Source: Bacteroidaceae bacterium (lineage in GTDB: Bacteria > Bacteroidota > Bacteroidia > Bacteroidales > Bacteroidaceae). Taken from it: a stretch of DNA of 64,000 nt. Shown here one piece after another: positions 1 to 13,697 of this stretch. How positions within the stretch are numbered: position 1 is the first letter of the stretch; every line of letters starts with the position of its first letter. A model generated the notes under the pieces. The model was given only the letters and a program-made list of their open reading frames with translations. It was not told the origin of the DNA and did no database searches. The position numbers and the translations under genes are program-made. The stretch lies in NCBI GenBank assembly GCA_045220575.1, contig JBGUVX010000032.1, positions 4,055 to 68,054 of the forward strand, read 5' to 3'.

Positions 1-1721
1 GCGAAGAAGGCGTAGATGGGAATCTTGGCCGTGCAGGACATGAAGGGAGTGAGCAGGATGGTCATGCGGCGGTCGCGCTCGCTCGGCAGCGTGCGGCTGG
101 CCATGACGCTGGGCACCGAGCAGCCAAAACCGATGAGCAGGGGCACTATGCTGCGGCCCGAGAGTCCCAGACGGCGCAGCAGTTTGTCAGTGACGAAGGC
201 TATGCGAGCCATGTAGCCCGTGTCCTCAAGCATGCTGAGGAAGAAGAACAGGCAGACAATGAGGGGCAGGAACACCAACACTGTACCCACGCCGTTGTAG
301 ATGCCGTCGATGATGAGCGAATGCACCGCAGGGGCAATGTTCCAACTGGTGAGTGCCTGGTCGCTAATCTCCGTGAACCAGTCGATGCCCGTCTGGAACA
401 GGTCTTGCAGCCATGCGCCGACGGAGGAGAAGGTGAGGTAGAAGACCAGTCCCATGATGAGTACGAACGACGGAAGGGCCGTCCAGCGACCCGTCAGGAT
501 GCGGTCGATGCGGCGGCTGCGGATGTGCTCGTGGCTCTCCCGCGGCTTCACTACGGCCTGACGGGTTACGGCCTCGATGAACTTGAAGCGCATGTCGGCA
601 ATGGCAGCCTGACGGTCGAGCCCGCGCTCCTGCTCCATCTGCACGACGATGTGCTCCACCGTCTCACGCTCGTTCTGCGTCAGCCCCAGCGCCTCAGCCA
701 CCAAGGCGTCGCCCTCTGCCAGTTTGCAGGCAGCAAAGCGGGCTGGGATGTCGGCCCGCTGGCAATGGTCCTCGGTCAGGTGCATGATGGCGTGCAGACA
801 GCGGTGTACGGCACCTCCGTGGTCGTCGGGGTGGCAGAAGTCCTGCCGCTGCGGACGTTCCTGATAGCGGGCGATGTGCAGGGCATGGGCCACAAGTTCG
901 TCCACACCCTCGTTCTTCATCGCCGAGATGGGCACCACAGGCACTCCCAGCAGGGCCTCCATGCGGTTGATGCGCACCGTGCCCCCGTTGGCCTCCAGCT
1001 CGTCCATGATGTTCAGCGCCACCACCATCGGCACGCCCAGCTCCATCAACTGCAGCGTCAGGTAGAGGTTGCGCTCGATGTTCGTGGCGTCAACGATGTT
1101 AATGATTGCCGTGGGGTGCTCGTCCAAGATGTAGCGGCGGCTTACCACCTCCTCGCTCGTGTAGGGCGACAGGCTGTAGATGCCCGGCAGGTCGATGACC
1201 TGAGCCTCGGGGTGACCCTTGATGGTGCCGTACTTGTGCTCCACCGTCACACCCGGGAAGTTTCCCACATGCTGGTTGGCCCCCGTCAGTTGGTTGAAGA
1301 GCGTGGTCTTGCCGCAATTCTGGTTTCCCGCCAGCGCAAAGGTCAGGCGCTGGGTGGCAGGCAGCGGCTTCGCATGCGCCTCCGGCGACTCGTCGTGGTA
1401 GTGGCCGCCCTCACCCAGTCCCGGGTGCTCTATCTGCGACTGGAACTCCGCCTCGTCCCCCTCTTCACCATCAACCTCTAATCCTTCACCATCAACCCTT
1501 AATCCTTCAACCTCTATCTCCCCTGCCTCGGCAATGCGCAACGTCAGTTCGTAGCCGTGGATGCGCACCTCCATCGGGTCGCCCATGGGCGCAAACTGCA
1601 CCAGTGCCAGTTCGGCACCAGGTATCATGCCCATGTCCAGCAGATGCTGGCGAAGGGCACCCTCGCCGCCCACAGCGACAATGCGTGCCCTTTGTCCTAT
1701 TTTCAGTTCACTCAGTTTCAT
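1..1721 (-). CDS. feoB: Fused FeoA-FeoB ferrous iron transporter (N-terminal ~573 aa; C-terminus lies beyond the window start)
   Basis: My own minus-strand translation from the ATG at 1719-1721 gives MKLSELKIGQRARIVAVGGEGALRQHLLDMGMIPG (FeoA-like). A linker follows, then LTFALAGNQNCGKTTLFNQLTG (G1), DLPGIYSL (G3) and membrane segments. The ORF runs off the window, so it is absent from the ORF track. The + ORFs 321-1481, 649-864 and 874-1065 are its antisense shadows. Confidence 0.9.
   Translation of the reverse strand, partial: MKLSELKIGQRARIVAVGGEGALRQHLLDMGMIPGAELALVQFAPMGDPMEVRIHGYELTLRIAEAGEIEVEGLRVDGEGLEVDGEEGDEAEFQSQIEHPGLGEGGHYHDESPEAHAKPLPATQRLTFALAGNQNCGKTTLFNQLTGANQHVGNFPGVTVEHKYGTIKGHPEAQVIDLPGIYSLSPYTSEEVVSRRYILDEHPTAIINIVDATNIERNLYLTLQLMELGVPMVVALNIMDELEANGGTVRINRMEALLGVPVVPISAMKNEGVDELVAHALHIARYQERPQRQDFCHPDDHGGAVHRCLHAIMHLTEDHCQRADIPARFAACKLAEGDALVAEALGLTQNERETVEHIVVQMEQERGLDRQAAIADMRFKFIEAVTRQAVVKPRESHEHIRSRRIDRILTGRWTALPSFVLIMGLVFYLTFSSVGAWLQDLFQTGIDWFTEISDQALTSWNIAPAVHSLIIDGIYNGVGTVLVFLPLIVCLFFFLSMLEDTGYMARIAFVTDKLLRRLGLSGRSIVPLLIGFGCSVPSVMASRTLPSERDRRMTILLTPFMSCTAKIPIYAFF
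1463..1520. repeat. 21-bp (3x7) tandem repeat inside the feoAB linker
   Basis: CTTCACCATCAACCTCTAATC / CTTCACCATCAACCCTTAATC / CTTCAACCTCTATCTC. It encodes EVEGLRVDGEGLEVDGE in frame. Confidence 0.85.
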
Positions 1722-1800
1722 GACCGCAAAATTACAACATTTCGCGCGTCCGTGCAATACCCTATACTGGGTATTTTCAAAACCACAGCCCCGTGCGTAC

Positions 1801-2766
1801 TCAGCGCATGAGCTGCGACACATCGAAATGACCGTCGATGGTGCGAATCTCCACCTTGCCAGCCATGACGTCGAAGAAGAAGTCGCGGATGCGTTCGATG
1901 CTCAGCGTCACGGGATTGCCCTTGGCATCCTTGCCCATGTCGTAGCTCTTCAGCAACTGAGGCCCCAAGGCGGCAGCCGTCAGCAGGAAGTGATTCTGGA
2001 ACTTGTCCGTGTCGATGAGGTCAGCAGCCAGCACCTTGCCCACTACCGAATAGCAGCGCAGGGTCTTCTGCACCTCCTCGTCGGTAAGTGACGACTTTAG
2101 TTCGTCGGCATCCACATCCATCTCTATGCGGCCTGAGTTGGCAGACTGTTCCACACCACGATACAGGGCACCGAGGTCGGCCAGCGACAGATTGAAGAGC
2201 CTTGCCCCGGGAGCCACAGAAAGTTTCTCGATGGAGAAGGCACTGGGCAGCAGCAGATGGTTGGTGCCCGCAATATGAACGTAAGGCGCATTGAAGGTGC
2301 CTACGACGCTTCCCGTAATGTCGATTTGCTGGGTAGCAAACACACCGCCGATGACGACACAGTTCTCCAGCGTCACGTCGTCGGCATAGATGCTTCCGGC
2401 CACGAAGGCATTATAAAGCGTCACCTGCTTGGCATTGACGTCGGAGGCAAAAACGAGCTTACAGCCCGTAGCACGCGACGTTATCGAATTGGCAGAGCCC
2501 ACGGCCTTGCGGAAGGCGATATCGCCCGTAGCCGATGTGTTGACATACAGCTCCAGTTGTGTGAACACAGCTCCCTGCACCTCCAGCGGGCCGTTATTCA
2601 CCTCGAACTTGTGGGCATAGACGGCACCTTCAATGACCGTAGCCCCCTCGATGCTGATGTCGCGGTTCAGTTCGTCCACCTTCTCGGGCAGTATGCCACC
2701 CTTCACTCTGTTATTGTCCAGCTTCACGCCCTTTCCGTTGAAGCGCAATTCTTTCAGTTCTTCCAT
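1801..2766 (-). CDS. Hypothetical protein with a repetitive beta-helix (bactofilin-like) core; last gene of the six-gene operon
   Basis: The ORF track gives 1801-2787 from a TTG start. The first ATG (MEELKELRF) is at 2766. The central ~150 aa is a degenerate V/G/A/T-rich short-strand repeat (IEGATVIEGAVYAHKFEVNNGPLEVQGAVF...VTLENCVVIGGVFATQQIDITGSVVGTF). I do not recognise a family with certainty. Confidence 0.7.
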   Translation of the reverse strand: MEELKELRFNGKGVKLDNNRVKGGILPEKVDELNRDISIEGATVIEGAVYAHKFEVNNGPLEVQGAVFTQLELYVNTSATGDIAFRKAVGSANSITSRATGCKLVFASDVNAKQVTLYNAFVAGSIYADDVTLENCVVIGGVFATQQIDITGSVVGTFNAPYVHIAGTNHLLLPSAFSIEKLSVAPGARLFNLSLADLGALYRGVEQSANSGRIEMDVDADELKSSLTDEEVQKTLRCYSVVGKVLAADLIDTDKFQNHFLLTAAALGPQLLKSYDMGKDAKGNPVTLSIERIRDFFFDVMAGKVEIRTIDGHFDVSQLMR

Positions 2767-2806
2767 ATTTCTTGTGTGTTTTTTCAATAGGTAAATATGT
2801 CATATA

Positions 2807-3832
2807 TCACTTCACCCGCATGATGCGGTTTTTGGAAAACAGGTTGAGCATCATCTGACGCACCCGTTCGTCGTGGGCCGTCGGAGAAGCAAAGTGGCTA
2901 CCCACCTCGGCCTTGAAGTAGTTGGCCACACGTTCCTGCTCGGCATTGCTGACGGGTTCCCACTGACGATGCTCTATCTGGTCGCGCACCACTCCGTTAT
3001 CAATGGCGTTCGTAATGGCCTTCGGGCTATACAGGAAGGTTGACTTCACGCCGTCCTCCCCTACCCGCTCGGTCATCATCAGCGGTACGTAATAGCAGGC
3101 CTCGTCGCCTTGGAACATGTGGTGAGCAATGGTGCTTCGCATGTCGCGCTGACGATAAAGGTATTCACTGGCATGATGCAGCATTTCGGAAGCCTGATGC
3201 TTCAGCGTAGCAGACGACAAGTGAGCCTGCAACTTGGCTTCCTCACTTCCCGTCACTACAACGGTGCTCACCATGTCGCTGTCCGAACCCTTCTGTGCGT
3301 AGGCATCGGCTGTTTCGCGGAACTTGAACACAGGCAGGTCGATTTCGTGGATGCGGTTTTTCAGTTCGGCATTCAGCGTGTCGAACACCTTGATATAGCG
3401 CTGACAGATGCGCTGATAGTCGACGCCCATCTGGTTCTTCTTCTCCAGGCAGCGCTTGGTCTGCTCCACCAGATGCATGGCCAACGACTCCACTTCATTG
3501 GTGAGTTCGTTGATTTGCTGACTGATTTCCGAGCCGATGGTCTTGAAGAAACCGTTGATGATAGTGGATGCCACACGCTTGGAGTTCGAATCCACCGAGG
3601 CCACCTGAGCCGCTTCGGTAGCCGCAACGGCACCCGTCAGGATGTTCACCTGCTGGTTGCAACTGGCCACACTGTTGTCGAAGGGGTTGGTATCGACGTG
3701 CACATTCACGTTCACGACCTCTGTCGCCGTACCGCTGTAGCTCTTGGTTCCGCCAGTCTGCGAGGCAGGATAACTCACCGTACCCGAATAGTGGATGGTG
3801 ATGGTTTTACTTACTGTTCTGGTATAACTCAT
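2807..3832 (-). CDS. Hypothetical protein, paralogue A of a tandem pair
   Basis: 341-aa ORF whose ATG overlaps the stop of the upstream gene (ATGA at 3829-3832). It aligns by eye with 3829-4758 over ~130 aa (VDTNPFD...INGFFKTIGSEISQQ...GVDYQRICQRYIKVFDTLNAELKNRIHEIDLPVFKFRE). Confidence 0.75.
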   Translation of the reverse strand: MSYTRTVSKTITIHYSGTVSYPASQTGGTKSYSGTATEVVNVNVHVDTNPFDNSVASCNQQVNILTGAVAATEAAQVASVDSNSKRVASTIINGFFKTIGSEISQQINELTNEVESLAMHLVEQTKRCLEKKNQMGVDYQRICQRYIKVFDTLNAELKNRIHEIDLPVFKFRETADAYAQKGSDSDMVSTVVVTGSEEAKLQAHLSSATLKHQASEMLHHASEYLYRQRDMRSTIAHHMFQGDEACYYVPLMMTERVGEDGVKSTFLYSPKAITNAIDNGVVRDQIEHRQWEPVSNAEQERVANYFKAEVGSHFASPTAHDERVRQMMLNLFSKNRIMRVK

Positions 3833-4758
3833 GATGCAGCGGTGTTGAAGGTTTCAAAACTATTCTTCTGGAACAGTGTGCGAGCCATCTCCTTCACACG
3901 GTCGCTGGCCTGGGAGGCAGAAAGCAGTCGGTTGAACTCGTTCTGAATCTCGCCACTAATTTCCCCAGTCTGCTTCCAAGGCAGTTCGTTCACTTGTTCG
4001 AGCACACGATTACGGGTTGCCGCCACGGCCTGTGGGGTAATGCCGTTGGCATTGGCCACCACGTTGGTGGTTGTGGCTCCCGAGCTGTCGATACACGCCT
4101 CCGATACGATGTTCGGCAACATGTACAGGGCACTGGGCTTCGAAGTCGGCAGGTGCAGCAAGATGCGGTTGGTCAGCTTCTTCTGGTTGGCCATACCCGC
4201 CAGGAAGGACGACATTGTGTCGATGACCTCCAAGGCATGATGCTTCACGTTGGAAGCGGCAATGCGTTGGCTCATGGTCAGCGACTCCAACTGTGAGAGG
4301 GGCACCGTCGAGGTCAACTGTCGCGGACGGTTGGAAATCAGTTCCAAGTCGCGCTCTGCAAAGTCGAACGTGGGACGGTCCAGTTCATAGACACGCTGCT
4401 TCAGGCTCTGATTCAGGGTGCCAAAGAGTTTGGTATAGCGGGCTGTAATCATGTTGTAGTCGTGTTCCATGCGCGTCTTGATGTTCAGCAACATACGTGT
4501 CTGCTGCTGCAACTGCATGATTAGCGAGTCCACTTGGCTGGTCAGTTTTGCCGTCTTTTGGGAAATCTGCGAACGGATGAGGGTGTAGAAACCACGGTTT
4601 ACGTTGTTGCAGACATGTTCGGCAGCATCGTTTTCGGCTTTTACCACAGCTGCCTTCATCGCCACGACAGCCGTGGTGGTACCCGTCACATGATGGGAGA
4701 TGGAGTTCATCTCACTGGCCATTGGATGGGTGTCGATTATACAATCTATATTTGCCAT
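3829..4758 (-). CDS. Hypothetical protein, paralogue B of a tandem pair
   Basis: 309-aa ORF with an ATG start. It shares a motif set with 2807-3832 (IDTHPMA...VNRGFYTLIRSQISQK...MEHDYNMITARYTKLFGTLNQSLKQRVYELDRPTFDFAE). The middle looks helical. Confidence 0.75.
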   Translation of the reverse strand: MANIDCIIDTHPMASEMNSISHHVTGTTTAVVAMKAAVVKAENDAAEHVCNNVNRGFYTLIRSQISQKTAKLTSQVDSLIMQLQQQTRMLLNIKTRMEHDYNMITARYTKLFGTLNQSLKQRVYELDRPTFDFAERDLELISNRPRQLTSTVPLSQLESLTMSQRIAASNVKHHALEVIDTMSSFLAGMANQKKLTNRILLHLPTSKPSALYMLPNIVSEACIDSSGATTTNVVANANGITPQAVAATRNRVLEQVNELPWKQTGEISGEIQNEFNRLLSASQASDRVKEMARTLFQKNSFETFNTAAS

Positions 4759-4803
4759 AGAACTTATCTTCTTAGTGCAGGGTTCAACATTCCGTTATCA
4801 CTC

Positions 4804-6921
4804 TCATGCCTTTTCTTCGTCGGACTCAGGTTCGTCACCTTCGGATTCGTCGGCCTCAGAGTATTCGGCTTCGGATTCGTCGACTTCCTCAGTCTCTGCC
4901 TCATCGTCCGTAATCTCAGCTTCGTCGTCTACGACCTCATCGCCTGCGGACTCCTCATCGAAGTCCTCTTCAGGTACATCCTCGGGCACGTCTTCGGGTG
5001 TCTCTTCCACTTCGTCAACAGGCTCTTCCTCGGGTTCCGGCTCCTCGTAACGACTGTTGGCAGCATCGGGATCGCCAGTTTGCAACATGGTATCAAGGTC
5101 CTCAAGTGCACGTTGGGCCAGTCCTGGCAGGTTCAACGAGAAGTGTTCGTAGGTGACATCGTCCACCTTGGGCTGCGGCAACAGTTGTGACGTACGTGCC
5201 AACAACGGGTTAGCCAGTGCCAACGGACGGCTGCGGTCGTCGAGCTCGTTGATGGCAGCAGGACTGGAAGCCACGGCTGCATCGTTGAAGTGCGAATCGC
5301 GCAACTTTGCATCGTAGTATTCGATATGTTCGAACTTCACGGCCTTCTGGTCGATGTCTTCCTTCAGGCGTTCGATGTACTCCTCGAAGTCGTCCTGCGT
5401 CTGACGGAACTGTGCCGACTTGGTCTCGAAGGTGGCAATGGTCTCTGCCGTGTTGTCCACGACATCCACCTTTGTAGCATCCAGCGACTGCGATTTCTGC
5501 ATGTTGGCCTCGGTCTGCTGCAAGGAGATGAGGGTATTGTAGGCTGCCACATATTCGCGCAGGGTTTCCTGCATCTGGCTGATAAGCTGCGAACTCTCGG
5601 CACGGTTGGCACGATAGAAGGCATCCGTGTCCTGATGCCACTTGTTCAGGTAGTCCAACTTCTGGTCGCGGATGTGGTTGTAAATCTTCAGGCGCTCGAT
5701 GCGGTTCTCGGCCATCAGGTTCTGCACCACGGGAGCCACTATCTCTTCGTATATCTGATGTACGCCGAAGGGCATCGTCGTCGTGGAACCGTCCTCTGCC
5801 GTCCACATGCCAGAGGCCATATTGAAACGGACGCGGCTGCTGGTACGCAGTTGGAAGGGTTCGTAGCCCTGCACGTCATCGCTATAGTCGAAGCGTTCCA
5901 TGCGGATTCGCTCTATCTCGTCGTGCTCGAGCATGGGGGAATAGTGGTTGTAGGGAGCCTTCAGAATTTGGTACAGCAGTTTGTTGGACTCCAGCACCAC
6001 CTTGTCCACTGAAGCCACTTTCAGCGACGATATGGCCTGCACCGAGCCTGCCATCGTCACCATCAGCTCCTTCAACACATCCTCGAACTGCTTGGTCTTC
6101 GTGGACAGCGAGTCCTTCAGGGCATTGAGTTCCTGGAACTTGTTGATACCCTTTTCGTAGCGCTGGTCGTCGAAGACCTTCAGCACGGCTGCGTCCTCGG
6201 GTAGGTCTTTCGTGGCAAATTCGTTCAGGAATGCCTGATAGTCGCTGTTTTTGCTCACGAGAGGCAGGGACACCGACGATGTATCGAGGTCGTCCATGCA
6301 ATAGGCGATGGTGCGTAACGAATGGTCGAGTTTCCCGAAATAGTCGTGCTGGTTGATTTCCTGAATAGAGGGTGAGTAATCAGCCGTCTCCACGGTCTCC
6401 GTGTCCTCAGAGGTCTCTACCAAGGGAGCTTCAGCCGACAGTTTCTCCAAATCGGCTATCGTCTCCACCAGAAGGTCGTTCTGCCGCGACATCTGCAACG
6501 TGACTTCCGATTCGGGAACGCTTCCCGTATAGTCCACGATGAAACTCTCGTCCTCGTACTTCACCTGATTGGCAATGGGGGTATAGACCACACCCATCTT
6601 CGTTATCTTGTAGTCACGGAATATCTCGTCGTGCTGTTTCTTGAACTCTCTGATGCGAGGTTCTATGTCATCGATTTGCTTCTGCAGTCCCTTCTTCTTA
6701 AAATAATAGAAGATGAAAAGGACGATTGTGTAGGGCCACCACCAGATTTTGGCGATTTCCTCTTCGATACGCTTCTTCTGTTTCTCCAGGTCGGCAATTT
6801 CTTTCTCTATCCGTTCCTCTTCCTGGACAATCTTCTGAGCCGACCTCATGTAATAGTCGAACAACAATTTAGCCTGATCTTGGTAAACATTCTCCGACTG
6901 AGCAAAAACTTTTCCCGTCAT
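4804..6921 (-). CDS. Large hypothetical protein: N-terminal coiled coil, one TM helix, long helical body and a ~70-aa polyacidic tail
   Basis: 705-aa ORF with an ATG start. Charged heptad-like N-terminus (EEERIEKEIADLEKQKKRIEEEIAKI), hydrophobic segment WWWPYTIVLFIFYYF, and a C-terminal E/D-rich tail (EEPEPEEEPVDEVEETPEDVPEDVPEEDFDEE...). I saw no P-loop or other catalytic motif. Confidence 0.75.
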   Translation of the reverse strand: MTGKVFAQSENVYQDQAKLLFDYYMRSAQKIVQEEERIEKEIADLEKQKKRIEEEIAKIWWWPYTIVLFIFYYFKKKGLQKQIDDIEPRIREFKKQHDEIFRDYKITKMGVVYTPIANQVKYEDESFIVDYTGSVPESEVTLQMSRQNDLLVETIADLEKLSAEAPLVETSEDTETVETADYSPSIQEINQHDYFGKLDHSLRTIAYCMDDLDTSSVSLPLVSKNSDYQAFLNEFATKDLPEDAAVLKVFDDQRYEKGINKFQELNALKDSLSTKTKQFEDVLKELMVTMAGSVQAISSLKVASVDKVVLESNKLLYQILKAPYNHYSPMLEHDEIERIRMERFDYSDDVQGYEPFQLRTSSRVRFNMASGMWTAEDGSTTTMPFGVHQIYEEIVAPVVQNLMAENRIERLKIYNHIRDQKLDYLNKWHQDTDAFYRANRAESSQLISQMQETLREYVAAYNTLISLQQTEANMQKSQSLDATKVDVVDNTAETIATFETKSAQFRQTQDDFEEYIERLKEDIDQKAVKFEHIEYYDAKLRDSHFNDAAVASSPAAINELDDRSRPLALANPLLARTSQLLPQPKVDDVTYEHFSLNLPGLAQRALEDLDTMLQTGDPDAANSRYEEPEPEEEPVDEVEETPEDVPEDVPEEDFDEESAGDEVVDDEAEITDDEAETEEVDESEAEYSEADESEGDEPESDEEKA

Positions 6922-6961
6922 GGCATTAGATTTAGGAGTAAATATTAAGGTTATTCAATCT

Positions 6962-7645
6962 TCAATAGCTCTGTCTGCGAGCCTTCACAAGTTTGTCGAG
7001 CTTGTCGAGCAGGTTCGAAACCTCTTCCTGTCTGCCGGCATCCAGCGAGGCATCCAGCGAGGTAACAAGCTGCAGGATGCGGCTCTCAATAGCGCGTGTC
7101 TCAGGATTCTCACTGGCCGAGGTATAGCGCAGATCCTCCTTCATGGCTTCGATGCGCTGACGCACGTTGATGTCGGCAATGTCGTGCTCCAACAACAACA
7201 TGTTAACGCTTTTCCTGATTTCCTCGAGCGAGCTGCGCATGGCTTCCTCGCGGGCATGCACACTGGCAACCTTATCATTCATACCGAAAACGCCCGAATA
7301 GCCCAAAGACAACAGTCCCAACAGGGCAATTTGGGCAAAAAGCTGTATGCTAAAGGACCATTCCAACTTAGCACCCAGAAAAATTACGGCAATGGCCAGT
7401 AGGGCATACATCCAGTTCACCGTCCAGCGCAATCCCAACGAGCCCACTTTACGCTGAGCCTTATCGGCAAGATTGAGCCAAGGTACGAAGATGTCTACAA
7501 AGAACAAGCCGTAGATGATGAGGGAGACCACGATGTCCAGCGCCAGCACCTTATCGGGCAGTGCAGGACGACCGAATAGCAGAAATGCTCCGACGATGGC
7601 ACCTGCTCCTATGAGACAGGCCAAAATGCTTAATGCTTTTCTCAT
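6962..7645 (-). CDS. Hypothetical 4-TM membrane protein with a C-terminal helical/coiled-coil tail
   Basis: The ORF track gives 6962-7699 from a GTG start that would overlap the upstream gene by 20 nt. The first ATG (MRKALSILACLIGAGAIVGAFLLFG) is at 7645. There are four hydrophobic segments followed by a ~100-aa charged helical tail. Confidence 0.7.
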   Translation of the reverse strand: MRKALSILACLIGAGAIVGAFLLFGRPALPDKVLALDIVVSLIIYGLFFVDIFVPWLNLADKAQRKVGSLGLRWTVNWMYALLAIAVIFLGAKLEWSFSIQLFAQIALLGLLSLGYSGVFGMNDKVASVHAREEAMRSSLEEIRKSVNMLLLEHDIADINVRQRIEAMKEDLRYTSASENPETRAIESRILQLVTSLDASLDAGRQEEVSNLLDKLDKLVKARRQSY

Positions 7646-7679
7646 AGCCGTATCAGTTATATGGATAAAATGTTTCGCT

Positions 7680-8969
7680 TTAATCGCGCTTTTTGCCACA
7701 TTTAGGGCAGAACTTCACATTTGCCGGCATGGGAGTGCCACAGCGGCTGCATACGAAGTTGGCCGTGATAATCTGTGCCCCACAGTTACCGCAGAAGGTC
7801 TGGCCTGGCATAACGGGCTGTCCGCAGTTGGGACAACGGTCCTGAGCCTGCTGCAAGGTGGCTCCGCAACTGACACAGCGGCGTGCGCCCTCGGCATTGT
7901 CTGCCCCGCAATTGGGACACGGATTATAGGGGTCGCCGCAGTAGGGGCAGAACTTGGAAGTGCTGGGATATTTCTTGGCACAGTTCGAACAATAGACCAT
8001 CCGCACCTGTCCTTGTGGTACCTGCTGGCCGTCCTGCACGAAACCCTGCTGCTGACCGCCGCCCTGACCGCCGAAGGTGGGTTGGTTGTACTGGGGGTTC
8101 ATCATTCCGGCTCCCATACCGGCGCCCATGCCATTCATCATTCCCAAGGCCATGATGCCGCCAAGCATGCCGCCGCCTGTGCCGCGTCCCATGCCTTGGA
8201 CAGCCTCTTGAGCCACGCCGAACATCTGCTCCTGCTGCCAGGTGCGTCCCGTTATGGACTGCGCACTCTGCTGCGATATGGCTTCGTGTACCTTGCGACC
8301 AGCTTCCGTCGAGGTGTCGATGTCGATGCCCGTCACATAGAACTTCGTCAGTTCCAGTCCTATCTCGCTCCAGAACGAACTTGTGGCTTCCTTGAGGTAC
8401 TGGGAGAGTTGGTCGAGGTAGGCCGAAATGGACTTGAAGCCCACATGGTTCTGCATCATGAACTGCACGATGCAGGATTTCGTCTTTGTCACAAACTCTC
8501 CGTATGCCTGGTCCGTAAGGTCGCTCTCCGTGAACGTGGCACGTGTACCCACCAAACGAACCAGGAAGCGTTCGGCATCCATCACCCTCAGGCCGTAGCG
8601 ACCACTGGCCACCAGCGGCAACTGGGTCTGGTAGTCGACATCCTGAATGGACATGCTGTCGGTAGTCCAGTCCAAATTGGCGGGCAGGATTTTGTTGACG
8701 AACCACACCTCGGCCATGAAGGGGTTCTTGCCCCCAAAGGGAATGCCGAAGAGGTTGCGTAACAAGGGAATGTTCTCGGTGTCCAGAGTGTACTTTCCGG
8801 GACCGAACTTCTGCAGCAGACGTCCCTTGGAGAAGAGCACAGCCTCCTGCGACTCCTGCACGAGCAACTGTGTCCATGTGGAAAGATTGGTTTCGGGATA
8901 GCGGTAGGCAAAAATGGTCTCTTCTCGCGAATCGCGGGGAGTCCAGCTAACTAAGTCAATTATAGCCAT
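7680..8969 (-). CDS. YdjI-like SPFH/Band-7-type protein with a Gly/Met/Gln-rich linker and four C-terminal zinc ribbons
   Basis: The track start at 8975 is TTG; the ATG (MAIIDLVSW) is at 8969. The architecture matches my recollection of B. subtilis YdjI / COG4260: an N-terminal SPFH-like domain, a low-complexity linker (GMGRGTGGGMLGGIMALGMMNGMGAGMGAGMM) and a C-terminal zinc-ribbon region. Here that region holds 8 CxxC pairs (CSNC, CPYC, CPNC, CVSC, CPNC, CGNC, CSRC, CPKC). Confidence 0.8.
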   Translation of the reverse strand: MAIIDLVSWTPRDSREETIFAYRYPETNLSTWTQLLVQESQEAVLFSKGRLLQKFGPGKYTLDTENIPLLRNLFGIPFGGKNPFMAEVWFVNKILPANLDWTTDSMSIQDVDYQTQLPLVASGRYGLRVMDAERFLVRLVGTRATFTESDLTDQAYGEFVTKTKSCIVQFMMQNHVGFKSISAYLDQLSQYLKEATSSFWSEIGLELTKFYVTGIDIDTSTEAGRKVHEAISQQSAQSITGRTWQQEQMFGVAQEAVQGMGRGTGGGMLGGIMALGMMNGMGAGMGAGMMNPQYNQPTFGGQGGGQQQGFVQDGQQVPQGQVRMVYCSNCAKKYPSTSKFCPYCGDPYNPCPNCGADNAEGARRCVSCGATLQQAQDRCPNCGQPVMPGQTFCGNCGAQIITANFVCSRCGTPMPANVKFCPKCGKKRD

Positions 8970-9000
8970 ATTCAATGTGTTTTTTGGTACGTAGCGGTCA

Positions 9001-9008
9001 CAAATCTA
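9001..9008 (-). promoter_or_regulatory. -7 box TAGATTTG for the six-gene operon
   Basis: The reverse complement of CAAATCTA matches the Bacteroidota TAnnTTTG consensus. It lies 32 nt upstream of the ATG at 8969. Confidence 0.55.
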
Positions 9009-9035
9009 ATAAATAATCATGGAATAGCGTGCATG

Positions 9036-9079
9036 ATGATGTTAAAATTTGCAGTCACGCAAACATTTTTTAACATCAT
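9036..9079. repeat. Perfect 12-bp inverted repeat (ATGATGTTAAAA / TTTTAACATCAT) with a 20-nt loop
   Basis: Read directly from the sequence. It lies upstream of the operon promoter in the divergent 8970-9440 spacer. Confidence 0.8.
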
Positions 9080-9092
9080 ACCGTAAAATTCT

Positions 9093-9241
9093 CATTACAG
9101 ATTACAATTACAGTTAGGGTAGAGGCGTTTTGAAACTTGTTACTTACAATCTTTAATCTATTATATTTATTATATATTAATATATAATAACCATCTGTAT
9201 TCATTTTTCTGAAAACCTATCTGTAATCTGTAATTGTAATG
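9093..9241. mobile_element. MITE-like unit: 21-bp heptamer-word terminal inverted repeats around an AT-rich core
   Basis: Left arm CATTACAGATTACAATTACAG (9093-9113) and right arm CTGTAATCTGTAATTGTAATG (9221-9241) are 19/21 complementary. The core contains the perfect 18-bp palindrome TTATATATTAATATATAA (9170-9187). Confidence 0.6.
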
Positions 9242-9260
9242 GCTTGTGTACTTACGCCCA

Positions 9261-9334
9261 TAGGTTCGTGAACTTGTTGTCGTAGGTTCGTGAACCTTCC
9301 CTTTCAACGTGCACAAGTGTCGTATCTTCAATCA
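9261..9334. repeat. 22-bp phased units: 2x TAGGTTCGTGAAC followed by an ACGTG/GTGTCGTATC unit
   Basis: Copies at 9261-9273 and 9283-9295. The next unit is CAACGTGCACAAGTGTCGTATCTTCAA. Compare 52040-52061 (CGACGTGTCGTATCCTTCGAAG) and 52216 (CAACGTGTCGC). Confidence 0.7.
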
Positions 9335-9385
9335 TGGTGCTTGTATTTTTATGCGCTGAAATTTGCGTTTTCGCTCAGTTTGCAC

Positions 9386-9393
9386 TACCTTTG
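9386..9393 (+). promoter_or_regulatory. -7 box TACCTTTG for the SGNH hydrolase gene
   Basis: Matches TAnnTTTG, with a TTTG at 9362-9365 (20-nt spacer, -33-like). The ATG is at 9441. Confidence 0.6.
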
Positions 9394-9440
9394 ACCTGCA
9401 GAAACGATGTAACTAACCATTAATACTAATAACAAAGGAC

Positions 9441-10142
9441 ATGAAAAGACTGAGAATGGCAGGAATGACTCTCCTGCTTTGGATGGTGAGTGCTAACGGA
9501 GTGTGGGCGCAGAAGCACGACTTTGCCAACTGGAAGCGCTATGCCCAGCAAAATCAGGAACTGGGGGCCCCGAAGAAGGGCGAGAAGCGCGTGGTGCTGA
9601 TGGGTAACTCCATCACCGACGGATGGCCCGGAAAGCGCCCAGAGTTCTTCAAGGACAACGACCTCATCGGACGCGGCATAGGCGGACAGACGAGCTACCA
9701 GTTCCTGCTGCGATTCCGCGAGGATGTCATCAACCTGCAGCCCAAGGTGGTAGTCATCAACTACGGCACGAACGACATTGCCGAGAACACGGGAGCCTAC
9801 GACGAGGACCTGACCTTCGGCAACGTGCTGTCGATGGTGGAACTGGCCCGCTACCACAAGTGCAAGGTCATACTCACCAGTTGCCTGCCCGCCGCAGGGT
9901 TCTGCTGGCGCACCGAAATCAAGGATGCGATGGAGAAAATACGCCACCTGAACGAGCGCGTGAAGGCCTACGCCAAGGAGAACAAGATTCCGTATGTCGA
10001 CTATTTCAGTGCCTTGGTGAGCGAGGACGGTAGCGGCATGAAGCCCGAACTGGGCGAGGACACGCCTGCCGTGCACCCCAACAAGGACGGCTACGCTGTC
10101 ATGGAGAGCCTGCTGCTCCCCGTCATCGAAAAACTGCGTTAA
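9441..10142 (+). CDS. Secreted SGNH/GDSL-family hydrolase
   Basis: Signal peptide, then VVLMGNSITDGW (block I GDS-like), GIGGQTS, and NYGTNDIAE (block III). 233 aa. Confidence 0.85.
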   Translation: MKRLRMAGMTLLLWMVSANGVWAQKHDFANWKRYAQQNQELGAPKKGEKRVVLMGNSITDGWPGKRPEFFKDNDLIGRGIGGQTSYQFLLRFREDVINLQPKVVVINYGTNDIAENTGAYDEDLTFGNVLSMVELARYHKCKVILTSCLPAAGFCWRTEIKDAMEKIRHLNERVKAYAKENKIPYVDYFSALVSEDGSGMKPELGEDTPAVHPNKDGYAVMESLLLPVIEKLR

Positions 10143-11302
10143 AGCAGGCGCTGGATTTCCTCTTCCAGATTCCCAAGGAACTCCATGCGCCCCACGAGAT
10201 TGGAGCCGCGGTCGACGAGGAACCACGTGGGCAGCGTCTGCAGGTTGTAGATACTGACAATGTCGTTCTGCAGCCCCTCGCTGTCCCACACGCAAACCCA
10301 AGGCAGGGTTTCCGAGACGGTCTTCCAGTAGTGTTCGTCGCCGTCGAGCGACACCTGGTAAATCTCCAGTCCGAGGGCATGATATTTGCTATACAACTGT
10401 CGCAGGGCCAAGGTACGGTCCTGCGACCCTTTTATGCTGTAGGCCGTAAAGTCGAGGAGCACCACCTGACCCTTCAGGTCTGACAGACGGCGTTCGCGAC
10501 CCGCACAGTCGGGAAAGCCCATGTCGATGATGCCCGTTTCCGACACCTTCGCGTTGTCCATATCTATCTCCAGCACCTTCTGGCGCGTGTTGGCACGGCC
10601 CTGCAGGGCAATGTTGCGCAGGTTCTCGCCGCGCTGGCTGCCTGGATAGAGCAATTCCCATGAGTTGGCCAAGGCCGTGAACCACGTCACGTCGCCCGGG
10701 TCGCTCACGGGGTTGAACACCATCTGCTCGCCCACCATCTGGAACATGGCGTAGTACGACGAAGCCGCCCCGTAGCGGTTCTGGATGAAACGCAGCTTCA
10801 CGTCCGTCTTGTAGGCATCGATGAGCCGCTGTATCTGCTCCTCGCGCTCCGTGAGCATCAGTCCGCGGTCGTCGGCCACGCGCCGAACCTGCTGCACCAG
10901 CGTGTCCAGTTTCAGCGCCAGAAGGCGGATGGTGTCGCAGTTGCCGCTGCCGCTCACCTGATAGCCCAGGGCCATCTGTGGCAGGCGGGCCTCCACGCGC
11001 ACCGTCTCCGTAGAGTCGATGCTCAGGTTCACCACCTGCATGCCGATGCGCAAGCGGTAGAACTCGGGATTCGAGGGACGCGGGCCGTGGAGCGAGAAAT
11101 CGCCCGTTTCATCGAGCTTTACGCTGTCGAGCCCCACCACGCCGTCGGCCAGCGACAAGTGCTCCAGATAAAGCATCGTGTCCTGCGCCTCGGCGATGCA
11201 GCCCTCTACGGTGAACTGCTCCCCCTTCTCCCTGCAGGCGGAAAAGAAGATGAGTACAAAACCAAAGGCTACGAATAAGAAAAGCGGTCGTTTCATTGTC
11301 AT
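10139..11302 (-). CDS. TlpA-like thioredoxin-fold lipoprotein (AhpC/TSA-type C-terminal domain)
   Basis: Lipoprotein signal (LIFFSAC), an N-terminal beta-rich domain and a C-terminal thioredoxin-like region (GQVVLLDFTAYS...LPTWFLVDRGSNLV). The alternative ATG at 11296 is equally possible. Confidence 0.7.
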   Translation of the reverse strand: MTMKRPLFLFVAFGFVLIFFSACREKGEQFTVEGCIAEAQDTMLYLEHLSLADGVVGLDSVKLDETGDFSLHGPRPSNPEFYRLRIGMQVVNLSIDSTETVRVEARLPQMALGYQVSGSGNCDTIRLLALKLDTLVQQVRRVADDRGLMLTEREEQIQRLIDAYKTDVKLRFIQNRYGAASSYYAMFQMVGEQMVFNPVSDPGDVTWFTALANSWELLYPGSQRGENLRNIALQGRANTRQKVLEIDMDNAKVSETGIIDMGFPDCAGRERRLSDLKGQVVLLDFTAYSIKGSQDRTLALRQLYSKYHALGLEIYQVSLDGDEHYWKTVSETLPWVCVWDSEGLQNDIVSIYNLQTLPTWFLVDRGSNLVGRMEFLGNLEEEIQRLL

Positions 11303-11319
11303 TTCGTCGTTTTATCAGG

Positions 11320-11327
11320 CAAAAGTA
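11320..11327 (-). promoter_or_regulatory. -7 box TACTTTTG for the TlpA-like gene
   Basis: Reverse complement of CAAAAGTA; 18 nt upstream of the ATG at 11302. Confidence 0.5.
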
Positions 11328-11350
11328 CGAATTTATTCAAAAATATTTTG

Positions 11351-11358
11351 TATCTTTG
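11351..11358 (+). promoter_or_regulatory. -7 box TATCTTTG for pnp
   Basis: Perfect TAnnTTTG; 57 nt upstream of the ATG at 11415. Confidence 0.6.
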
Positions 11359-11414
11359 CGCGACTTTTCGAAAGGAAGGCCACTATTTATACACTTTTTA
11401 TACACAAAACTTAG

Positions 11415-13697
11415 ATGAACGTTATTACAAAGACAGTCGAGTTGCCTGATGGAAGAACCATCAGCATCGAGACCGGGAAACTGGCGAAACAAGCCGATGG
11501 AGCCGTCATGCTGCGCATGAACAACACTATGCTCCTGGCCACTGTTTGCGCCGCCAAAGATGCCGTTCCCGGAACAGATTTCATGCCCTTGCAGGTAGAG
11601 TACAGAGAAAAGTATTCCGCAGCTGGAAGATTCCCAGGCGGATTCACGAAGCGCGAGGGTAAGGCTAACGACGACGAGATTCTCACCTGTCGTCTGGTGG
11701 ACCGCGCACTGCGTCCCCTCTTCCCCAGCAACTATCATGCTGAGGTCTACGTGAATGTAATCCTCTTCTCCGCCGATGGCGTGGACATGCCCGATGCACT
11801 GGCCGGTTTTGCCGCCTCTGCTGCTCTGGCTGCCAGCGATATACCCTTCGAGGGCCCCATCTCCGAAGTACGCGTCGCCCGAATCAACGGCGAGTTTGTC
11901 ATCAACCCCACCTTCGAGCAACTGAAGCAGGCCGACATGGACCTGATGGTAGGTGCCACCGAAGAGAACATCATGATGGTTGAGGGTGAGATGAAGGAAG
12001 TGCAGGAGAGCGATCTCCTGGCCGCACTGAAGGCTGCCCACGAGGCCATCAAGCCCATGTGCCGCCTGCAGAAGGAACTCAGCAAGGAACTGGGTACCGA
12101 CGTCAAGCGCGAGTATTGCCACGAGGTCAATGACGAGGAACTGCGCGAGCAGGTGAAGAACGAATGCTACCAGCCCGCCTACGACGTTACGAAGCAGGCT
12201 CTGGAGAAGCACGCCCGTGCCGAGGCCTTCGAGAAGATTCGCGAGGACTTCAAGGTGCGCTACGCCGAGGCTCACGCCGACATGGCTGCCGAGGAACTGG
12301 AAGAGAAGAACGCACTCATCGACCGCTACTACCACGACGTAGAGCGCGATGCCATGCGCCGCTGCGTGCTGGACGAGGGTATCCGTCTCGACGGTCGTAA
12401 GACCACCGACATCCGTCCCATCTGGTGCGAGGCAGGCCCCCTGCCCATGCCCCACGGAAGTGCCATCTTCACCCGTGGCGAGACTCAGTCGCTGAGCACC
12501 ACCACCCTGGGCACGAAACTCGACGAGAAACTGGTGGACGACGTACTCGACAAGAGCTACATGCGTTTCCTCCTTCACTATAACTTCCCTCCCTTCTCAA
12601 CAGGCGAGGCAAAGGCACAGCGCGGCGTAGGCCGTCGTGAAATCGGTCACGGCCACTTGGCTTGGCGCGGTCTGAAGGGCCAGATTCCTGAGGACTACCC
12701 CTACACCATCCGCGTGGTGAGCGACATCCTGGAGTCCAACGGTTCCTCTTCTATGGCCACCGTTTGCGCAGGCTGCCTCAGCTTGATGGATGCTGGTGTG
12801 CCCCTGAAGGCCCCCGTCAGCGGTATCGCCATGGGACTCATCAAGAACCCCGGCGAAGACAAGTACGCCGTGCTCTCTGACATCCTCGGCGACGAGGATC
12901 ACTTGGGCGACATGGACTTCAAGACCACAGGTACTCCCAAGGGCCTGACCGCCACCCAGATGGACATCAAGTGCGACGGCCTCAGCTACGAGATTCTGGA
13001 GAAGGCCCTGATGCAGGCCAAGGCAGGCCGCGAGCACATCCTGGCCGAGATGCTGAAGACCCTGCCCGCTCCACGTCCCGAACTGAAGCCTCACGTACCA
13101 CGCATCGAGCAAATCATCATCCCGAAGGAATTCATCGGAGCCGTCATCGGCCCGGGTGGAAAGATTATCCAGGGAATGCAGGAAGAGACTGGTGCCGTCA
13201 TCACCATCGACGAGGAAGACGGCGTAGGCAAGGTGCAGGTTTGCGCCTCCAACAAGGAGAGCATCGATGCTGCACTGGCCAAGATTCGCGCCATCGTTGC
13301 CCTGCCCGAGGTTGGTGAGGTTTACGAAGGCGAGGTTCGCAGCATCATGCCCTACGGAGCATTCGTAGAGTTCATGCCCGGCAAGGACGGTCTGCTCCAC
13401 ATCAGCGAAATCGACTGGAAGCGCCTTGAGACCGTCGAAGAGGCAGGCCTGAAGGAAGGCGACAAGATTCAGGTGAAGCTCATCGACATCGACGAGAAGA
13501 CCGGCAAGTTCAAGCTCAGCCGCCGCGCCCTCATGGAGAAGCCCGAAGGCTATGTTGAGCGCGAGCGTCGTCCCCGTCCCGAACGTGGAGAGCGCCGCGA
13601 GCGTGCCGAAGGCGAACGCCGTGAACGCCGCGACAGAGGCGAGCGTCGTCCCCGTCCAGAACGTGGCGAGCACAACGAGCACAAGAGCGAAGAGTAA
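11415..13697 (+). CDS. pnp: Polyribonucleotide nucleotidyltransferase (PNPase)
   Basis: 760 aa with two RNase PH-like domains, KH ([18 protein letters not shown]) and S1 ([20 protein letters not shown]) domains, and a basic ERR-repeat tail. Confidence 0.97.

Follow-up and report, generated by a model that had tools for sequence, protein, structure and literature searches.

A conserved SPFH-containing six-gene cassette of Bacteroidota that probably encodes an undescribed membrane-associated protein machine

The 64,000-nucleotide stretch of a Bacteroidaceae genome analysed here (the window; contig JBGUVX010000032.1, positions 4,055 to 68,054) contains on its minus strand a cassette of six closely packed genes, which we designate A to F from 5' to 3' and of which A encodes a protein with an SPFH domain. 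Because gene order and strand are constant among related loci, a promoter motif is enriched only before A and the flanking genes are unrelated from locus to locus, we are close to certain that the six genes form one functional unit. Its products probably constitute an undescribed membrane-associated protein machine, within which the triad of C, D/E and F (D and E are paralogues) appears to be the conserved core. A literature search found no description of the six-gene cassette; together with the synteny described below, this bears out the proposal of an earlier reading of the window (the sequence-only reading) that the genes are a candidate undescribed system, and shows them to be a conserved and self-contained unit.

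Conservation of the cassette and of a three-part core

A profile of D, searched against 185,579 genomes, gave hits in at least 176 species-level genomes; we fetched 80 species-level loci and compared the six window proteins by BLASTP with all open reading frames (ORFs) of these loci. In every locus of sufficient length the order A-B-C-D-E-F is kept on one strand, so that the synteny across Bacteroidota, which the sequence-only reading had proposed to check, is confirmed. Between orders the proteins retain approximately 60% (A), 32% (B), 63% (C), 50% (D), 42% (E) and 65% (F) identity at near-constant size, and the median intergenic gaps across loci are 5-21 nt; the six genes appear to be under strong purifying selection.

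Carriers are named here by their submitters' labels, so that the taxonomy of metagenome-assembled genomes (MAGs) is a caveat on any sharing between orders. They include Bacteroidales (Alistipes, Barnesiella, Muribaculaceae, Paludibacter, Dysgonomonas, Tannerella), Marinilabiliales (Labilibaculum filiforme, Draconibacterium), Flavobacteriales (Capnocytophaga sputigena NCTC11653, Lutibacter), Chitinophagales and one Melioribacteraceae MAG, and at least four are cultured (C. sputigena NCTC11653, L. filiforme, Dysgonomonas termitidis and Barnesiella sp. An55). The window cassette is nearest to that of a rumen Bacteroidaceae MAG (D 92% identical). When the concatenated A, D and F proteins are clustered at a minimum identity of 78%, single clusters bring together different orders and even different classes (for example Chitinophagales with Lutibacter and Labilibaculum), and Alistipes holds at least three distinct cassette types. 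Since near-identical cassettes occur across orders and the fraction of carriers is low, these data suggest lateral spread of the cassette within the phylum. One MAG (USPA_maxbin.052) has two different complete cassettes on two contigs (L018 and L020), either a true duplicate or a mixed bin.

The flanks of the cassette are unrelated: 333 flanking ORFs fall into 287 clusters, 255 of them singletons and none with more than five members, and no conserved seventh gene was found among them. The 127 immediate neighbours, scored as raw counts one gene to either side in 70-odd loci, are mostly housekeeping genes (ribosomal S12, DapB, FeoB, PGK, GH65, rpoC); two are integrases, and a handful match models of PADLOC-DB v2 (MkoA/MkoC, ThsB). 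No C homologues were found in phage and plasmid records.

In the window, the mechanical ORF list contains all six minus-strand ORFs (Table 1), and the tight packing claimed earlier, with gaps of -4 to 45 nt, follows from their coordinates: 34 nt separate A from B, 40 nt B from C, 45 nt C from D and 40 nt E from F, and the frames of D and E overlap by 4 nt. The ATG starts of A (8969), B (7645) and F (2766) agree with N-termini conserved among homologues; the longer GTG- or TTG-initiated ORFs listed for these three genes disagree with them.

The AT-rich spacer of 460 nt upstream of A has a Bacteroidota-type -7 promoter box, TAGATTTG, at its end. The sequence-only reading had taken it for the only box of the operon; the box itself stands, but it is not the sole one, as a second, TAGTTTTG, occurs at 3862-3855, immediately 5' of E. 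Across related loci, the motif is present within 120 nt upstream of A in 29 of 71 cases, compared with 0-3 of 73-80 for each of B to F and 3.4% of background windows. Because it precedes E in none of 79 loci, as against 29 of 71 for A, the TAGTTTTG box looks like a chance occurrence; and because the motif is enriched only before A, the cassette family has one promoter region, before A.

These observations bear on the simplest alternative, namely that six unrelated genes lie side by side without a common function. That the case for a common function is made from genome sequences speaks for this explanation, but the synteny effectively refutes it, as 80 loci belonging to several orders have an identical gene order although their flanks are unrelated; the overlap of D and E, gaps of at most 45 nt, the promoter motif confined to A and the retention of the triad in distant variants all point the same way, and we give it practically no chance.

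The distant variants were reached through C. Residues 1-640 of C served as the query of an exhaustive phmmer search of 1.84 billion cluster representatives. The 323 matches include full-length relatives at 21-28% identity, and the content of the corresponding loci was read with hidden Markov models (HMMs) of the six families. Two loci (L090 and L093, the latter cut short) are of a divergent six-gene type, in which A, B and C are followed by D/E-like genes. Seven others encode only homologues of the triad, which we denote C', D/E' and F', and the HMM scan found neither an SPFH gene nor a B homologue in them. In three of these (L087, L091, L095) a protein with tetratricopeptide repeats (TPR) and two AAA ATPase domains (AAA_lid_6) precedes C', one D/E-like gene and F'; in L088 a Ser/Thr kinase gene precedes C', D/E' and F'; and in L089, L092 and L096 the three genes occur without ATPase or kinase. 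Since seven distant loci keep C, D/E and F without A and B, the conserved core of the family is, judged from gene content, this triad and not the SPFH gene, and A with B is one of several interchangeable front ends. The earlier description of an operon built around the SPFH protein has therefore been abandoned.

The TPR-AAA proteins of L087 and L091 are 37.5% identical over 736 residues; the Walker-region motifs of this protein type may be closer to the SpoVK/CbbX/EccA group than to Vps4. The F' proteins of L087, L091 and L095 match the zinc-ribbon part of the A profile, with a C-terminal CPxC...CxxC motif in L087 and L091, and in L087 and L095 runs of small membrane proteins with an N-terminal zinc ribbon lie 3' of the triad. 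With 11 clusters at 90% identity, the L087-like subtype is rare, and a metagenome scan for further triad-only loci returned a single 1.8-kb contig.

Table 1. Features of the cassette in the window and of the ATPase genes linked to the triad in distant loci
Feature	Coordinates	Strand	Description or basis
TAGATTTG box	9001..9008	minus	Bacteroidota-type -7 promoter box, 31 nt upstream of the ATG of A
Gene A	7680..8969	minus	429 aa, soluble SPFH protein of Band_7_1/YdjI type (Pfam)
A, SPFH (Band_7_1) domain	8310..8906	minus	residues 22-220 (Pfam)
A, low-complexity linker	8010..8309	minus	residues ~221-320, Gly/Met/Gln-rich (sequence)
A, zinc ribbons	7689..8000	minus	residues 324-427, four CxxC...CxxC (Pfam)
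Gene B	6962..7645	minus	227 aa, four transmembrane helices (hydrophobicity scan and alignment of 39 homologues)
Gene C	4804..6921	minus	705 aa, most conserved partner (~63% identity)
C, aromatic hydrophobic segment	6700..6753	minus	residues ~57-74, likely membrane anchor
C, polyacidic tail	4807..5013	minus	69 residues, 39 D/E and 1 K/R
Gene D	3829..4758	minus	309 aa; conserved N-terminal DTxPM motif, helix of ~130 residues, second helix, small alpha/beta C-terminal domain
Gene E	2807..3832	minus	341 aa; D paralogue with an extra conserved N-terminal extension of ~38 residues
Gene F	1801..2766	minus	321 aa; bactofilin-like repeat region at residues ~40-190 (window 2197-2649)
TPR-double-AAA+ protein	L087 7689-9992; L091 243-2516; L095 7617-9959		~760-780 aa, directly upstream of C'-D/E'-F'

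The six proteins

In public annotation A is an 'SPFH domain-containing protein' and B to F are 'hypothetical'. A belongs to the Band_7_1/YdjI family: it matches Band_7_1 (PF13421) with E = 6.1e-34 and 117.9 bits (gathering cut-off 24 bits), a hydrophobicity scan finds no hydrophobic segment, in agreement with a soluble protein, and the domain is followed by a Gly/Met/Gln-rich region and then by C-terminal zinc ribbons (17 Cys; four stretches each for DZR, 8.7e-27, and Zn_Ribbon_1, 3.6e-25). The YdjI-type layout proposed for the lead protein was thus recognised correctly. The hit of A to Band_7 (PF01145) is only 0.069, and the zinc ribbons were its sole match among Protein Data Bank (PDB) sequences. 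One locus (L038, 11322-12449) contains a second, distant Band_7_1-like gene after F, 26% identical to A.

In B, residues 5-120 (window 7286-7633) contain four hydrophobic segments, and the helical tail behind them, approximately 105 residues long, has a conserved R-Y-x-S-P motif; this agrees with the four-transmembrane (4-TM) partner that had been described. From the charge distribution (an N-terminal MRK and a K/R-rich second loop) we infer that the tail is cytoplasmic.

C has very many invariant positions (aromatic, His, Pro) across about 560-600 residues. The sequence-only reading had seen in it a single-TM protein with a polyacidic tail of about 70 residues. The tail is present, with a length that varies among homologues; the TM segment, IWWWPYTIVLFIFYYF followed by KKK (consensus LWVWFLTIILFFVYFI, then KK), lies below the Kyte-Doolittle cut-off, but distant relatives have one or two clear TM helices at the same place, and the segment is likely a membrane anchor. 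Searches of Pfam, NCBIfam and the PDB with C gave no match beyond the low-complexity acidic tail, and an AlphaFold2 model was unusable (predicted local distance difference test, pLDDT, 53.5). A Pfam scan of 41 C homologues added only occasional zinc ribbons: two homologues (P0150, P0185) and two further members of the alignment contain a zinc-ribbon or Rho_N domain, which ties zinc ribbons to the core by a further route.

D and E are tandem paralogues, as had been noted (29% identity, BLASTP E = 8e-36), and share with the D/E' proteins the signature GF...D...RYxK...L...R...D...P. The NCBI gene call of the source MAG gives D 297 residues (P0253) instead of 309, the difference lying at window 4723-4758; the 309-residue start is probably right, since it yields the N-terminus MAxIDCxVDT that is conserved in homologues. 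An AlphaFold2 model of D built with 46 homologues (mean pLDDT 76.7) has helices at residues 11-142 and 154-199 and strands and helices at 217-304; a Foldseek search with it gave no match in the PDB (best E = 0.49) or in BFVD (best E = 0.03).

This model bears on the idea that the cassette is a cryptic but true PspA-YdjGHI homologue, in which D/E would be extremely diverged ESCRT-III/PspA proteins and B and C the equivalents of YdjG and YdjH. The YdjI architecture of A (PMC8581546) is in keeping with this, and the helix lengths of D, with an invariant Gly56, are not unlike those of an open ESCRT-III form. Residues 11-142 of the model, however, form one continuous helix with pLDDT ~90 across Gly56 and no hairpin, and the Foldseek search found no ESCRT-III or PspA structure; moreover, PspA_IM30 (PF04012) has no Pfam match in B to F, hhalign of the D and D/E profiles with E. 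coli PspA (an approximate query sequence) gave probabilities of 0.2-0.3%, and tblastn with PspA found nothing in the window or in any locus. We regard this relationship as highly improbable; the sequence-only reading, too, had seen no PspA/IM30-like partner.

F contains a region that had been called bactofilin-like. The resemblance is sub-threshold and limited to the N-terminal half: residues 107-189 match the Pfam Bactofilin family (PF04519) with 1.6e-5 and 25.5 bits, under the cut-off of 27.9 bits, and although 28 of 41 F homologues give a weak match (E <= 0.01), 25.5 bits is also their best score. F is thus no certified bactofilin, and F profiles, including a widened one, found no solved bactofilin in the PDB. 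This N-terminal half is the part that F shares with the distant triad-only loci; the C-terminal domain, approximately 130 residues long, shows high conservation among cassettes of the six-gene type but is not shared with those loci.

In Caulobacter, Myxococcus and Helicobacter, bactofilins bind to the membrane and act as spatial organisers, and one may ask whether the cassette encodes a membrane-attached cytoskeletal or positioning apparatus for cell shape, the division site or a cargo, with a polymer of F and rods of D/E tethered by C and B. The bactofilin-like region, the long-helix paralogues D and E, the membrane anchors in B and C, the housekeeping neighbourhoods and the very high conservation of C and F are all compatible with such an apparatus. 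Set against this are the sub-threshold match of F, the absence of a linked cell-wall or division gene, the apparent lateral transfer of the cassette and its restriction to a minority of Bacteroidota, seemingly not the best-studied species (judged from returned organism names only); on balance we hold this explanation to be doubtful.

Searches of B to F against Pfam, NCBIfam, PADLOC and PHROGs gave nothing significant, and profiles of B to F, with widened D/E and F profiles, matched among PDB sequences only the acidic tail of C and generic coiled coils, so that the five partners are as unplaceable as had been claimed. No catalytic domain was found in any of the six proteins with Pfam, NCBIfam and PADLOC. 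In the scan of PADLOC-DB v2 (5027 models), which the sequence-only reading had suggested, none of the six proteins has a match at E <= 0.01, the nearest being ZorA (0.036) and LmuB (0.064), both to coiled-coil regions of C.

The scan concerns a further explanation, that the cassette is an accessory anti-phage or abortive-infection system, in which a zinc-ribbon/SPFH (or AAA+ or kinase) sensor would cause a membrane-anchored C-D/E-F core to disrupt or seal the membrane. Its patchy distribution with near-identical copies across orders, its occurrence as a self-contained cassette at different chromosomal sites and its modularity, with a conserved core and swappable front ends (SPFH with 4-TM protein, TPR-AAA+ protein, Ser/Thr kinase), would suit such a system, as would the Mu-type transposase, the PemK toxin and the AAA/nSTAND3/HTH_17 genes that lie near some distant loci and the few immediate neighbours with PADLOC matches. 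Against it stand the PADLOC result, the lack of a recognisable nuclease, NADase, protease or pore-former domain, and a sequence conservation that is unusually high for a conflict system. Genomic context lends nothing to the abortive-infection idea of the sequence-only reading, as integrases make up only two of the 127 neighbours, the rest are mostly housekeeping genes and phage or plasmid copies were not found. Overall, a role in defence is unsupported, and we consider it improbable.

Sequences around the cassette

Downstream of F lies a feoA-feoB fusion gene (window 1-1721, minus strand), which starts at 1721 and runs off the end of the window. Since it has its own TAATTTTG box (1734-1727), it is a separate unit; the box is only 5 nt from the ATG. 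Its FeoA and FeoB parts are joined by a short repeated linker, GLRVDGEG/LEVDGEEG. A possible terminator hairpin after F was no better than in shuffled sequence (z = -1.7), and Rfam gave no match in window 1-12000 or in the leader of L001.

The 460-nt spacer upstream of A contains several repeats. The arms of a 26-nt imperfect inverted repeat (9093-9118/9216-9241; 73% complementary, with two perfect 13-nt cores) enclose a very AT-rich stretch of 97 nt. Near the promoter box is a perfect palindrome pair of 12 nt (9036-9047/9068-9079), and a direct repeat, GTTCACGAACCTA...GTTCACGAACCTA, occupies 9260-9300 on the minus strand, with related copies that make up repeat family D2.

In several other loci a C/A-rich element of approximately 285 nt, 78-92% identical between loci, lies directly upstream of A (L001 5440-5727; L015 3432-3716; L067 3486-3768; L040 3585-3867; L057 3521-3806; L060 3440-3725). 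It is also present in L018 and L023, its 3' ~100 nt recur in L065, L074 and L043, and it is not detectable in the window. The copies of L067, L040 and L057 are 85-89% identical; the six genes of the loci with the element, L015 apart, have only 54-75% DNA identity. A 75-codon ORF within the element was rejected as coding, for its substitutions have no third-position bias, its stop is unconserved and its frame is broken in L057; the element and leader have no Rfam match, and no fold was supported by covariation in RNAalifold.

Possible functions and comparison with known systems

The reading that we favour, with a probability of about 40%, is that the cassette encodes an inner-membrane-anchored scaffold or polymer assembly that is an analogue, not a homologue, of PspA-YdjGHI. 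That the products form a membrane-associated multi-protein assembly of some kind is likely; by analogy, its role could be in local membrane maintenance, remodelling or the handling of stress, for which we put the odds somewhat below even. We envisage that the six genes are co-transcribed and co-inherited and that their products most likely come together at the inner membrane, on its cytoplasmic side, with B and C inserted in the membrane and their bulk in the cytoplasm. The structural core would consist of C (anchor, helical body and polyacidic tail), of D and E, which probably form a hetero-oligomeric coiled coil, and of the bactofilin-like beta-helix protein F, with D/E and F providing an extended structural part on C. 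A and B could serve as a membrane-recruitment or organising module, A being recruited to the membrane as YdjI is by YdjG and YdjH and then oligomerising like other SPFH proteins. More speculatively, the polyacidic tail of C and the zinc ribbons, which belong to A or, in the other type, to separate proteins, may act as an electrostatic docking pair, and in loci with the alternative AAA+ partner the core assembly might be remodelled or disassembled. A triad with variable partners, such as AAA+ ATPases and zinc-ribbon membrane proteins, fits a polymer or scaffold core that is serviced by different organisers or remodellers.

Several points weigh against this scaffold reading. The cassette is known here from its genes, and that C, E and F are polymer-like is read from sequence only; the analogy is carried by gene A alone, because D and E have no homology to PspA/ESCRT-III; the bactofilin match of F stays under the Pfam cut-off; and the N-terminal 56 residues of C have an ambiguous topology. 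The distribution is also patchy, with at least 176 species-level genomes among 185,579 and cassettes that are at least 78% identical between orders or classes, which is less expected of basic membrane maintenance and more typical of accessory or conflict systems.

A bolder version, which we think rather unlikely, holds that C, D/E and F are an unrecognised family of membrane-bound filament or remodelling machines with new folds. Such machines would have interchangeable drivers (the SPFH-zinc-ribbon protein with its 4-TM receptor, a SpoVK/EccA-like double-AAA+ ATPase or a kinase), would be a functional parallel to ESCRT-III/PspA with Vps4, and would have spread laterally in Bacteroidota and their relatives.

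SPFH proteins are near-universal, and to our knowledge their molecular partners are known in few cases only (FtsH, NfeD, PspA). The cassette would add a further, genetically tidy partner set, with four protein families (B, C, D/E and F) that have no described relatives and two of which, C and F, keep ~60-65% identity across a whole phylum that is dominant in gut and rumen microbiomes. The pairing of the core with a double-AAA+ ATPase hints at a cycle of assembly and disassembly. If such a cycle were confirmed, it would represent a new bacterial principle of membrane remodelling or cytoskeletal organisation; if the cassette were an immunity system instead, it would be of a new type, with no effector domain that is known. 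To judge by its sequences the cassette is new in composition, above all in its C-D/E-F triad, and it can be compared with four groups of known systems.

In the PspA-YdjGHI (SamGHI) system of Bacillus subtilis, YdjI has a Band_7_1 SPFH layout without a membrane anchor, requires YdjG and YdjH for recruitment to the membrane and then recruits PspA (PMC8581546; bioRxiv 10.64898/2026.02.06.704340). A shares this layout (soluble Band_7_1 domain, low-complexity linker, C-terminal zinc finger), and in both systems the partners look structural or polymer-forming and not enzymatic. Integral membrane proteins that might recruit A are encoded beside it: B and C, which match no Pfam or NCBIfam family, could play a part analogous to that of YdjG and YdjH. 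The cassette differs in that it occurs in Bacteroidota, its five partners are in no known family, A has four zinc ribbons instead of one motif, and the wider family can do without the SPFH gene, as the triad-only loci attest. No PspA/ESCRT-III protein was detected in the cassette, which is therefore no member of the PspA-YdjGHI system.

With bactofilins (PF04519: BacA/B, CcmA, BacM), F shares a repetitive hydrophobic/Gly pattern at residues ~40-190 and the weak Pfam match. Unlike them, it scores under the gathering cut-off and its profile finds no solved bactofilin; it also has a conserved N-terminal segment and the C-terminal domain of 130 residues, and it is always linked to C and D/E.

SPFH proteins in general are described as forming oligomeric rings or cages that associate with membranes (Ma et al. 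2022, cited in PMC10936438). Like HflK/C-FtsH, stomatin-NfeD operons and flotillins, the cassette encodes its SPFH protein with membrane partners. Unlike in these, A lacks a TM or hairpin anchor and belongs to the Band_7_1 branch (its hit to Band_7, PF01145, is only 0.069), and the cassette has no NfeD or FtsH-type protease.

Finally, in ESCRT-III/Vps4-type and archaeal SPFH-zinc-ribbon-linked ESCRT loci (Makarova et al. 2024, PMC10936438), helical, polymer-like proteins are found together with either an AAA+ ATPase or a protein that combines SPFH, coiled-coil and zinc-ribbon parts. D/E have no detected similarity to ESCRT-III in sequence or, for the D model, in fold, and the triad-linked AAA+ protein differs from that of Vps4-type loci in its AAA_lid_6 lid; nevertheless, the triad is paired in a like manner, with an SPFH-zinc-ribbon protein in the window type and with a TPR-double-AAA+ ATPase in L087, L091 and L095.

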